From an uncultured Candidatus Saccharibacteria bacterium (GTDB lineage Bacteria; Patescibacteriota; Minisyncoccia; UBA6257; Colwellbacteraceae), in contig CAZLHU010000001.1 in assembly GCA_964559765.1 (NCBI GenBank), positions 75,600-139,599 of the forward strand: DNA of 64,000 bases, given 5' to 3'. Every line of letters starts with the position of its first letter. Positions within the stretch are counted from its first letter, which is position 1. A program made the position numbers and the translations under genes. The notes beneath the pieces are model-generated. The model did no database searches and was not told the DNA's origin. It was given only the letters and a program-made list of their open reading frames with translations. This document shows, in pieces, positions 25,237 to 28,200 of this stretch.

Positions 25237-28200
25237 ATCTTAGATATCCCAATCCAGACCGGCGATCCGTCTAACTCCGCGTTTTTCTCGACTGTAAACT
25301 TATCCGATCTCTCGGAGATAATTTCTTTTGCATCGATTTCTGATTTGAAATCAGAAAGGTGGTTTTGGATCGCCGTCCAGGCAGTCAGAGAGCATTGGAT
25401 ATAAAGCGTTATTAAATCTCCCGGGGTTAGACCCGCGTCGCGGCGCAATCCCTGTACCAATCTGGTCGCTTCGCGAATCATTCCCTCCTCTTTGAGTTCC
25501 GGAGTTAGAGTTGTATCAAGTCTCATCTCCTCGCCTTCCGGCAATTCCATGCTTGGATCGAAGGCGATCTCCTTAACATTCACCTCATCCTTCAATATCT
25601 CTATCAGCCCCTCATCGAGTGGGTCTTTGCGCTTAATTGTAAGCTTGGATAAGGGCTGGCGGACCTTGATCTTGACCTCCTCGCGTTTGGCCAATCCCAA
25701 ACTTGCAAGGCGGCGCACCTCAGACATCGTTTCGTTAATTTCTTTACGCTTAACCTCCTTCAGCGTGAACTGAGACTTAGGCCATGCGGCGAGATGGACC
25801 GATTCGGCAATATCATTACTTATACCGTGGGATTTAATCTTTCTATACAGATCGTCGGCCAGGAACGGCATGAATGGGGCGATTACCTTGCTTGTTACCA
25901 AAAGACTGTCATGCAGGGTATTGAAGAACACTCTGTCGTTACGCTTGCGGCTGCGACGTAGATACCAGGTAGATAGATCCTCCACATATTCCTGTATGGC
26001 CCGAGTTGCATGTACCGTATCATATGAATCTAGGTATTTGGTTGTTTCATTTATTAATTCTTCCGTCCTTGTCCTTATCCAAAGATCCAACACTTCCGCG
26101 CCAGCTTCATTACTGCTCTCTTTGGAAGAGTTATCCAAGCCGACGTATGTGGCAAAATACTTATACACATTAGATAGAATCAATTCCACTTTGCGGTAGG
26201 CACTCTCAACCCCCTTCTCAGAGAAGTTCAGATTATCCGCTTCCATGACCACTGAGTTCATTAGGTAGAAGCGCAGGCTGTCCGCCCCATACTTGCTCAA
26301 GAGGATTTTAGGATCGGGGTAGTTGCCTTTGGACTTACTCATCTTAGCCCCATCTTCCGCCAGTATTGTCCCAGTCGTAACCACATTCTCAAACGGCGCC
26401 TTCCCGAAGAGAATGAAAGAAACTACGTGCATGTTATAGAACCACGCCCTGGTTTGAGCGATATATTCAGCCACAAACTGTCCCGGGAAACGAGCCTCGA
26501 ACATTTCCTTGTTCTCAAAAGGATAATGCAACTCTGCGAACGGCATTGAACTAGCCTCCGTCCATGAATCAAATATCTCCGAAATACGCTTCATGTCCCC
26601 ATCACATGATTTGCAAGGAAAAACGATCCCATCTATATAAGGACGGTGCAGATCAACCTCTCCGGTATCGTTGCGTGAGACCATCTTCACATCGAGTTTT
26701 CTAATCTCGGCGAAGTCTATATAATCCTTGCCGTATTTCTCCTTATCGGCTATAGCCTGGCGTTCATCCAAAGCATGGGCCGTGGCAAAGAGCATCCATG
26801 TGGGATATTCATGCGTGACCAGTAATATATTCTTGCCTTTATACTTGGATTCACATTCAGCTAAGAATTCCCACACCCTTCCGCGTAGATCGCGTAAAGA
26901 TTCTCCTCCCTGCGGGCGTTTTTCGAACTTATCCTTGTACGTTGGGAAATATTCATGGTACTTCTCGTCGTGATATCCGCTAAGAAGCGGCCCCAGACTT
27001 ATCTCCCTTAGACGTTTGTCGTATATGATGACCTCGCTACCTAATTCCTTCTTGTCTATGTCTGCGGTTTCTTCGGTGCGAAGTATGTCCGACGATATTA
27101 TAACGTCTATCCTCTTCTTTTCCTTGGCCAACTTTTTCTTGAAGTTTTCTATGGATTTTTTGGCCTCGGCTTCGCCGGTCGGAGTCAGATGAAACTTGCC
27201 CTGACCAGAGTCCACTATATCAAACACATTCGTCTCAGCCTCGCCGTGGCGCATGACCCAGTAATTGTTTTTTGACCCACCAACTCTCGCTGAAAGCTCG
27301 TCTATGCTCCCCATAACCTCCTCTTTACCGCACTTGTCGCATTTCCAGACCGGTATGGGATTGCCCCAATAGCGGTTGCGCGAAACATTCCAGTCTGGGG
27401 CAGCCTCCACGCTCTTCTCGTACCGTCCATGCTTGAGGTTGTCCGGGAACCAGTTGATCTCCTTGTCATTGGACTTTATCAACTTCGACTTTATCTTCTG
27501 AATATTTATGAACCACGCTGGTATCGCGTTGTAATACAGCGCTGTGCCGCACCGCCAGCAGTGCGGATACGAGTGTGTGTAATGCTCTTTCTTGAACATC
27601 AGGCCGCGCTCTTCCAGATCGGCAATCACCAGCGCATCCGCCTTTTTGAAATATTGTCCCCGTACCAACTTTGGAGCGTCATTATTAAATATGCCTTTAC
27701 TATCTAGAAGGGGCACAACCGGTAAGCCTTGCACGATTCCAAGATTATAGTCGTCTTCACCATAGACAACGGCAGTATGAACGATGCCCGTGCCGTCAGT
27801 TGTCGTCACAAAACTTGCACCGTACACTCTGTAAGATTTTGACCCATCCATCGCCGAAACCCTATATAGGGGCTCATATTCAACCCCGCGTAGCTGACTT
27901 CCAGGCCAAGTAACTCTAGGATCTTTTAACCCATATGCCTCAGCCCTACTTACAGCGACGATAAAGGCCTCACCGCCTTTTTCATAAACTCCATATTCTA
28001 AATCACTATTAACAGCAAGCGCCACATTACCGGGAAGCGTCCAAGGGGTTGTTGTCCAAGCTAGAAAGAATGTGTTTGGTGGTAGATTTAGTCCCTTTGT
28101 TGGACCCTCGATTATAACTTTAAATTTCGCAGTTACTGACTCTTCGGTAACGTCCTTATAGCTGTTATCCATCGCGACCTCAAAGTTGGATAGTGGAGTC

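Follow-up and report, generated by a model that had tools for sequence, protein, structure and literature searches.

A histidine-phosphatase domain nested in the zinc knuckle of an isoleucyl-tRNA synthetase and its recurrence across Patescibacteria

Why should the catalytic core of an isoleucyl-tRNA synthetase (IleRS) harbor a phosphatase? The question is raised by the ileS gene in a 64,000-nt stretch of DNA from a bacterium of the Patescibacteria (CPR) (contig CAZLHU010000001.1, positions 75,600–139,599, assembly GCA_964559765.1), the whole of which is referred to as the window. An earlier note, made from the letters of this DNA alone, had described the gene as an uninterrupted reading frame carrying a branch-1 histidine-phosphatase (HP) domain in the zinc knuckle of the synthetase, and both statements hold. 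The gene is a single reading frame of 1173 aa without interruption, and the Pfam family His_Phos_1 (PF00300) matches aa 499–664 with 96.3 bits (cutoff 21.7; E=2.3e-27), breaking the match to tRNA-synt_1 in two. The features of the window are listed in Table 1.

The insertion point could be defined by alignment with the IleRS of Thermus thermophilus (1ILE). Using phmmer, residues 9–491 of the window protein align with Thermus residues 9–480 and residues 700–999 with Thermus residues 488–794, and therefore ∼208 residues stand where Thermus has ∼7. The junctions read SARV/GGSK and DTGE/VDLH, and the resulting limits (26658–27281) differ by only a few bases from those given before (26660–27290). 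The two flanking Cys pairs align with the Thermus pairs and are predicted to serve as the four ligands of a zinc knuckle in the latter half of the catalytic core, probably the element that PMC11685878 calls CP3. Cys472, Cys714, and Cys717 are conserved in all of 120 homologs and Cys475 in 109 of them. The spacer between the pairs is ∼35–37 residues in known type-2 IleRS, a minor correction to the ∼25 aa assumed earlier, whereas the 208-aa phosphatase extends it to 238 residues in the window protein (Cys475 to Cys714).

These 120 best homologs, drawn from NCBI, JGI, ENA, and Logan assemblies (51–100% identity, 1000–1240 aa), all carry PF00300, with the insert at the same aligned place, and two contigs, one of them 411 kb long, are recorded as encoding the identical protein. 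The composition of the insert (GC 0.466, GC3 0.553) resembles that of the host gene (0.477 and 0.541) and lies inside the range of the host's 208-codon windows. No direct or inverted repeats of note were found flanking the insert. An assembly chimera or a recent foreign insertion is ruled out indirectly by the host-like composition, the lack of repeats and the occurrence in more than 100 independent assemblies. An intein had also been discounted before, and rightly so: the Pfam scan gave no intein or homing-endonuclease family, and the junctions have neither Cys/Ser/Thr nucleophiles nor a His-Asn pair, the residue after the insert being Val.

By its sequence and predicted structure, the insert is a complete, independently folding branch-1 histidine phosphatase of the short phosphatase type (PhoE/PspA/CobC-like) and not a mutase. 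An AlphaFold2 (AF2) model of the knuckle with the insert (pLDDT 94.5, pTM 0.90) agrees with the independent PGAM-type fold for which such a model had been proposed as a check. With this model, Foldseek returned many PGAM-fold structures at probability 1.0. The best matches were PspA, mycobacterial hydrolases (6S2Q/R), Rv2419c, the riboflavin-pathway HFP, PhoE, and CobC, and true mutases ranked behind the short phosphatases. The earlier term "PGAM-like" is accordingly right for the superfamily fold and misses the subgroup. PspA, PhoE, and CobC are the nearest solved proteins by sequence, too (E=1e-7 to 1e-4), with the cap region aligned throughout; SixA-type models cover only the first ∼70–80 residues of the module.

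All four motifs listed in the earlier note are present in the module: RHGE (502–505), LTPTG (523–527), a further motif at 554–563, and LVTHEY (645–650). Residues R502, H503, S555, R559, E618, R626, and H648 are invariant in the 120 IleRS homologs, and E584 and other pocket residues align with their counterparts in PspA and PhoE. The catalytic signature is also kept in all complete modules among 169 that were compared, be they embedded, free-standing or multi-copy. Mean identity to the reference is ∼50% for the insert and 64% for the IleRS body. From this pattern of retained catalysis the module is apparently an active enzyme and not a structural relic.

Comparison with curated families placed the insert below the equivalog cutoffs of its nearest relatives (PspA, 46.7 vs. 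350 bits; CobC TIGR03162, 59.6 vs. 162.9 bits). SixA was not among the NCBIfam families listed as matching the insert, and the free-standing relatives described below reached 30.7–37.3 bits with that model (cutoff 74.5). The glycolytic mutase dPGM was rejected as well, the best dPGM model (NF038349) giving 70 bits vs. a cutoff of 225. The window encodes its own cofactor-independent phosphoglycerate mutase (iPGM), and the insert is therefore not needed as a glycolytic mutase.

The host is an otherwise normal type-2 IleRS, intact in its motifs and presumably fully functional. It matches the NCBIfam ileS model TIGR00392 with 809 bits (cutoff 621), ahead of the valS (388 bits) and leuS models. The HIGH motif is followed by the CP1 editing motif TTTPWT (aa 234–239), by a second editing motif, GTG.VH, and by KMSKS, and the Pfam matches in the C-terminal part are Anticodon_1 and DUF5915. 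Among 74 homologs H54, G56, H57, T234–T239, G321-T322-G323, H326, K804, S806, K807, and S808 are invariant, while the conservation of M805 in KMSKS is 90% or more. The full-length AF2 model (pLDDT 87, pTM 0.79; insert region 86–96) resembles the IleRS2 of Priestia megaterium (8C8U/V) and the yeast (8WND) and Thermus enzymes with TM-scores of 0.79–0.87 (target-normalized). The window protein is an orthologue of these type-2 enzymes and shares with them HIGH, KMSKS, the CP1 editing motifs, both knuckle Cys pairs and the type-2 C-terminal region. Neither a second ileS nor a second phosphatase of the insert's family was found within the 64-kb window.

A possible relevance for mupirocin-type inhibitors had been raised, which nothing supports in this ordinary type-2 IleRS with HIGH and KMSKS intact. 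The models for the mupirocin-resistant MupA and MupB gave 698 and 697 bits vs. a cutoff of 1900, corresponding to generic type-2 resemblance. Homologs with the insert are named merely "class I tRNA ligase family protein" at NCBI, although annotation pipelines already tag PF00300 in them.

The insertion had also been taken for a possible lineage-specific elaboration, and a survey of related genomes had been suggested. Besides the 120 best homologs, such a survey found the full insert at 37 loci in a scan of GTDB species representatives, and all informative labels of these loci belong to Patescibacteria. The lineages are Paceibacteria/Parcubacteria, Wolfe-, Yanofsky-, Nomura-, Colwell- and Zambryskibacteria, and Spechtbacterales. 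In Chloroflexota, Dormibacterota, and Actinomycetota the knuckle of type-2 IleRS measures ∼59 codons and lacks the insert, and at least one Minisyncoccia genome has no insert in its IleRS either. The titles of one insert-bearing locus (L002, QYPD01000003.1) and of several others (within L005–L034) read "Spirochaetia bacterium" or "uncultured Candidatus Saccharibacteria". These labels come from bulk catalogs of metagenome-assembled genomes, look like mis-binning or catalog defaults, and were not trusted.

When a profile of the insert alone was run against 1.84 billion cluster representatives, 693 clusters were retrieved at E≤1e-30, and architecture classes were assigned from the best 149 of these. 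The majority class is an IleRS with one module in the knuckle, while ∼40 of the 149 are free-standing proteins of ∼190 aa, with tandem doubles of ∼400 aa in addition. Within IleRS the module occupies at least four sites, namely A and A′ (both in the knuckle, A′ after the DLH motif), B (after SGSMPYA..HYPF), and C (before the anticodon-binding domain). These sites are used in the combinations A+A′, A+C, B, B+C, and A′+B+C, with a maximum of three modules per protein. In a neighbor-joining distance tree of the modules, calculated without support values, the A′ modules form one cluster, the B modules one and the C modules two, and the clustering by site therefore points to separate insertion events followed by vertical descent. 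Enzymes of this phosphatase type are usually dimeric, and the tandem copies may form intramolecular pseudo-dimers.

One IleRS with two modules is encoded at locus L037 (DAOMYL010000005.1, ileS 2564–6583 on the + strand, 1340 aa), with the modules at site A, where the knuckle Cys ligands are lost, and at site C. Its reading frame is interrupted by in-frame TGA codons only, the first of which aligns with a conserved Gly (YEGK). From these codons the genome probably uses code 25, as in Gracilibacteria and Absconditabacteria.

The module is not confined to IleRS. Among 120 listed relatives of valyl-tRNA synthetase (ValRS), 71 carry one to four modules, and dozens of ValRS clusters (P0121 and P0400–P0517) are labeled Gracilibacteria or Peregrinibacteria. 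The ValRS modules lie between WWGH.IPVWY and RQDEDTLDTWFSS, i.e., in the loop that is topologically equivalent to the IleRS knuckle, and P0121 has four of them. Two very long ValRS, P0427 (1538 aa) and P0433 (1626 aa), have an additional module upstream of the WCISRQ motif. In a single cluster of arginyl-tRNA synthetase (ArgRS; P0203, loci L093/L094, 5001–7070) the module is found at the C-terminus, and ileS is absent from the gene block. In another single cluster (P0186, locus L092, 977–2140) it directly follows the catalytic domain of the threonylcarbamoyl-AMP synthase TsaC/Sua5, which matches TIGR00057 above cutoff. Rather than being lineage-specific, the elaboration is widespread in Patescibacteria and extends to ValRS and to one cluster each of ArgRS and TsaC.

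The free-standing module genes (∼190 aa) show a further kind of linkage. In 7 of 11 contexts (L036, L083, L084, L085–87, L088, L095/96, and L097) such a gene lies directly upstream of an insert-less ileS, either overlapping it by 8–10 nt or separated by a gap of a few nt up to ∼140 nt. The usual order is smpB followed by argS-HP-ileS-(x)-recO. The gene order in the window matches these operons, except that the module is inside ileS; here the argS stop is 2 nt from the ileS ATG. The ileS at L084 (Candidatus Staskawiczbacteria, JACQCP010000007.1, 5586–7712 on the + strand) encodes a divergent IleRS type, with HHAWGR in place of the HIGH context and EMHKSKGN in place of KMSKS, for which TIGR00392 is still the best model (582 bits for the truncated product).

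From the multi-site insertions, the ValRS loop, the fusions and the operons we infer that linkage to the synthetase has been selected; in this weighting, multi-site and multi-host insertions were counted above gene order. The recurrent independent fusions and the operon linkage lend indirect support to the coupling of phosphatase and synthetase suggested in the earlier note. As four or more surface loops are used and modules also come in tandem, what counts appears to be proximity or stoichiometry and not precise geometry. The hosts also share their chemistry: IleRS, ValRS, ArgRS, and TsaC all turn ATP and a carboxylate into an acyl-adenylate and pyrophosphate (PPi), followed by release of AMP, and TsaC makes threonylcarbamoyl-AMP (TC-AMP) without tRNA. 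Given this chemistry and the retained small-molecule cap region, a small phosphorylated product or by-product is the most economical guess for the substrate. We regard it as an even call whether the module is an active phosphomonoesterase whose substrate is tied to the reaction of adenylate-forming, tRNA-related enzymes and which for this reason has been kept linked to them, with such a (by-)product as the favored substrate.

The reaction itself would follow the standard two-step route of the superfamily. His503 would attack the phosphoryl group of the substrate, held by Arg502, Arg559, and His648, to give phospho-His503, while Glu584 would protonate the leaving group. Water would then hydrolyze phospho-His503 and free the phosphate. 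Physical or translational linkage would be kept since the substrate of the module is connected with the reaction of the host, be it IleRS in most cases, ValRS in sister lineages, the single ArgRS and TsaC clusters, or, elsewhere, an IleRS whose ileS is translationally coupled to a separate module gene. The substrate class that we weakly favor is PPi, a nucleotide or a released reactive adenylate, and removing it on the spot would pull or protect the charging reaction. For this it would be sufficient if the module were tethered from any convenient loop or co-translated in stoichiometric amounts.

In a bolder version, which we hold to be possible but doubtful, the class Ia synthetases of Patescibacteria would have, besides synthesis and editing, a genuine third catalytic activity in the phosphatase. 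Its target would be PPi, a nucleotide or a released or misactivated acyl-adenylate, and its function would be tied so closely to charging that it was repeatedly wired into IleRS, ValRS, ArgRS, and TsaC. If true, the chemistry would be new to the PGAM superfamily, and synthetases in reduced genomes would be elaborated on a new principle.

Several points weigh against a role in charging. We know of no inorganic pyrophosphatase (PPase) or aminoacyl-adenylate hydrolase in the PGAM superfamily, and hydrolysis of AMP would be wasteful. The nearest characterized relatives of the module are ordinary metabolic phosphatases, and the insert reaches no NCBIfam equivalog threshold for any specific phosphatase, so that the sequence yields no specific substrate. 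The ArgRS and TsaC fusions are single clusters, and the former can be explained by loss of the stop codon between neighboring genes. As regards gene order, 4 of the 11 free-standing genes are not beside ileS, in the ArgRS-fusion lineage the module stayed with argS when ileS had gone from the block, and part of the adjacency is inherited synteny; the argS-HP-ileS order may even be largely due to descent within one clade and hence no independent evidence. Finally, an H+-PPase has been drawn for one Parcubacterium (PMC5220378). A family-I PPase was found neither in the window nor in ∼90 short loci, which is far too little sequence to judge the genomes.

Some of these points also speak for a hitch-hiking phosphatase. 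Under this explanation, a housekeeping enzyme acting, e.g., on phosphoserine, a sugar phosphate or a cofactor phosphate, and unrelated to translation, first stood between argS and ileS, was then nested neutrally in permissive surface loops and has been retained only since the cell needs both functions and the fusion is hard to undo. The metabolic character of its closest solved or curated relatives (PspA, PhoE, CobC, GpgP, and the riboflavin-pathway HFP), the copies away from ileS and the synteny block shared by descent all fit, as does the choice of variable surface loops, at which exact geometry is evidently not required. However, without selection for linkage it is difficult to account for at least four IleRS sites, the ValRS loop, arrays of up to four active-looking copies and the fusions to ArgRS and TsaC. 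Three or four copies per polypeptide are more than a housekeeping enzyme requires, and the role of a glycolytic mutase is excluded as described above. We consider hitch-hiking unlikely.

It is less probable again that the module acts in cis on a macromolecule, such as a 3′- or 2′-terminal phosphate on tRNA that blocks charging, or phosphorylated residues of the synthetase itself. HipA/HipT-type kinases inhibit GltX and TrpS by phosphorylation in E. coli, and the module would reverse modifications of this kind. If it matters that the phosphatase is effectively concentrated near a bound macromolecule, covalent attachment at several loops and in multiple copies is to be expected. The superfamily does include the protein phosphatases SixA, PGAM5, and Sts-1, and all partners of the module are tRNA-related; t6A37, made via TsaC, is found on ANN-decoding tRNAs including tRNA-Ile. 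Yet the module has a full small-molecule cap region and not the open, cap-less site of SixA, TsaC acts without tRNA, and we know of no RNA-directed member of the superfamily. Nor was any kinase or tRNA-damage system seen in the neighborhoods examined.

A non-catalytic role, in which a structural, dimerization or ligand-sensing module (for phosphate or a phosphometabolite) tunes IleRS and any hydrolysis is incidental, is in our view improbable to a still higher degree. Aminoacyl-tRNA synthetases (aaRSs) often gain non-catalytic appended domains, PGAM-type enzymes dimerize so that tandem copies could act as pseudo-dimers, and the pTM of the full-length model suggests a defined rather than a floppy arrangement. 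All the same, the catalytic residues are invariant across the 169 modules while the rest diverges to 30–50% identity. The probability of an artefact or selfish element (a chimeric join in the assembly, an intein or some other mobile insertion) is vanishingly small. Nothing but the unusual architecture speaks for it, and against it stand the unbroken frame, the many independent assemblies, the host-like composition without flanking repeats, and the lack of intein or homing-endonuclease domains and splice residues.

Around ileS, the region 21620–31290 is rich in translation and RNA genes, among them argS. A compact sugar-metabolism cluster spans 693–10629 and 16765–21493. Between its two parts lies an ORF on the − strand (12159–15455, 1098 aa) with a small N-terminal peptidoglycan-binding domain as its sole Pfam match, and the product may be a large cell-surface protein. 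A gene for a PolX-type DNA polymerase, present in the window, is also found near the argS block in relatives (L093).

Table 1. Features of the 64-kb window, given in window positions; aa numbers refer to the IleRS protein.
Feature	Position	Strand	Remarks
ileS, type-2 IleRS hosting the inserted domain	25233..28754	-	Complete ORF, 1173 aa, TIGR00392
IleRS N-terminal part, aa 1-491	27282..28754	-	First Rossmann half, CP1 editing domain, CP2, start of zinc knuckle
HIGH motif (HYGH), aa 54-57	28584-28595	-	Within IleRS N-terminal part
First knuckle Cys pair, Cys472/Cys475 (KCDKCG)	27330..27341	-	Aligns with Thermus Cys461/464
Inserted HP module, aa 492-699	26658..27281	-	208 aa; Pfam, translation, AF2 model
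Pfam His_Phos_1 match proper, aa 499-664	26763-27260	-	96.3 bits, E=2.3e-27
RHG motif: R502, putative nucleophile H503, G504	27243..27251	-	R502 and H503 in 120/120 homologs
R559, second phosphate-pocket Arg (in SSDILRT)	27078..27080	-	120/120; invariant in 169 modules
E584, putative proton donor (in LREI)	27003..27005	-	114 Glu and 6 Asp of 120
H648, second active-site His (in LVTHEY)	26811..26813	-	120/120; invariant in 169 modules
Second knuckle Cys pair, Cys714/Cys717 (PCKSCDG)	26604..26615	-	Aligns with Thermus Cys502/504; DLHRPYID just before
IleRS C-terminal part, aa 700-1173	25233..26657	-	Second Rossmann half, KMSKS, anticodon-binding domain, DUF5915-type C-terminal domains
KMSKS, aa 804-808	26331-26345	-	Within IleRS C-terminal part
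argS (ArgRS)	28757..30442	-	Immediately upstream of ileS; Pfam
Class II aldolase	1407-2285		Sugar-metabolism cluster
PfkB kinase	2282-3292		Sugar-metabolism cluster
Transketolase C-terminal half	3285-4337		Sugar-metabolism cluster
GAPDH	7668-8693		Sugar-metabolism cluster
Thioredoxin-reductase-like protein	9706-10629		Sugar-metabolism cluster
iPGM	16765-18306		Window gene in glycolysis cluster
SBP_bac_5 solute-binding protein	18994-20574		Sugar-metabolism cluster
Bacterial-type PGI	20579-21493		Sugar-metabolism cluster
tRNA-Leu(CAG)	21500-21583
RNase J	21620-23398
TrpRS	24199-25236		Convergent with ileS; ORF ends overlap by 4 nt
tmRNA	30967-31290		Tag ANNRVATPALAYA
F-type ATP synthase alpha, gamma, beta subunits	39457-43307	+
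DUF763 protein	44074-45246	-	Very strong match, 415 bits
PolX-type DNA polymerase beta with PHP domain	46943-48679	-

Full-text searches of the literature turned up no account of an aaRS that has a histidine-phosphatase or PGAM domain, and a 2026 preprint that annotates ∼96,000 IleRS architectures mentions neither phosphatase nor Patescibacteria. As far as we found, the architecture is visible in databases yet uninterpreted. Accessory domains on aaRSs are already known; new here is an apparently active PGAM-type phosphatase that is nested in the catalytic core of an aaRS and has been recurrently recruited.

If the coupling is real, tRNA charging in ultra-small, energy-limited symbiotic bacteria would have a so far unrecognized need, e.g., for product removal, detoxification or repair, and the histidine-phosphatase superfamily could turn out to have a new class of substrates. 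If the module is merely hitch-hiking, the repeated nesting of a domain in essential genes of reduced genomes would remain striking in its own right. Since nested, split (operon) and insert-less forms all exist in nature, what the module contributes is directly testable.

Among known systems, the insert most resembles the short branch-1 phosphatases PspA (a phosphoserine phosphatase, 4IJ5/4IJ6), PhoE/YhfR (1H2E/1EBB), CobC (an alpha-ribazole phosphatase, 6NRU), Rv2419c (the glucosyl-3-phosphoglycerate phosphatase GpgP, 4QIH), and HFP (9MMH). It has their fold (TM-score 0.67–0.76, target-normalized), catalytic residues, length (∼200 aa) and cap region, and like them it has no dPGM C-terminal tail. 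It shares only 20–25% identity with them and stays under every curated equivalog cutoff. Furthermore, the insert is nested in or operon-coupled to another enzyme, whereas the known short branch-1 phosphatases are free-standing metabolic enzymes.

Two curated families are precedents for an added catalytic domain, but neither has this architecture. An IleRS with an extra catalytic domain has a precedent in ileS_w_GNAT (NCBIfam NF040702), but there the domain is a GNAT-type N-acetyltransferase and not a phosphatase, and the window protein, with 277 bits vs. a cutoff of 1999, is not a member. In the bifunctional RNase H/acid phosphatase (NF005567, Rv2228c type) a CobC/PhoE-like phosphatase is joined to a nucleic-acid enzyme. 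The insert matches its phosphatase half with 63 bits, far under the cutoff of 326, and the fusion is end-to-end, with RNase H and not an aaRS as the partner.

Conceptual analogs, with a hydrolase beside an adenylate-forming enzyme, are found in other protein families. In some eukaryotes an inorganic pyrophosphatase is fused to ATP sulfurylase/APS kinase, and Hint hydrolyzes the lysyl-AMP made by LysRS; in the favored mechanism the module would likewise remove PPi or a stray adenylate. The aaRSs are among the best-studied enzymes, and their known bacterial elaborations comprise editing domains, zinc modules and tRNA-binding appendages. A conserved, apparently active phosphatase in the catalytic core would differ from these, above all through its recurrence: it occupies several sites, forms tandem arrays, is found in ValRS too and serves as an operon partner throughout a bacterial superphylum.

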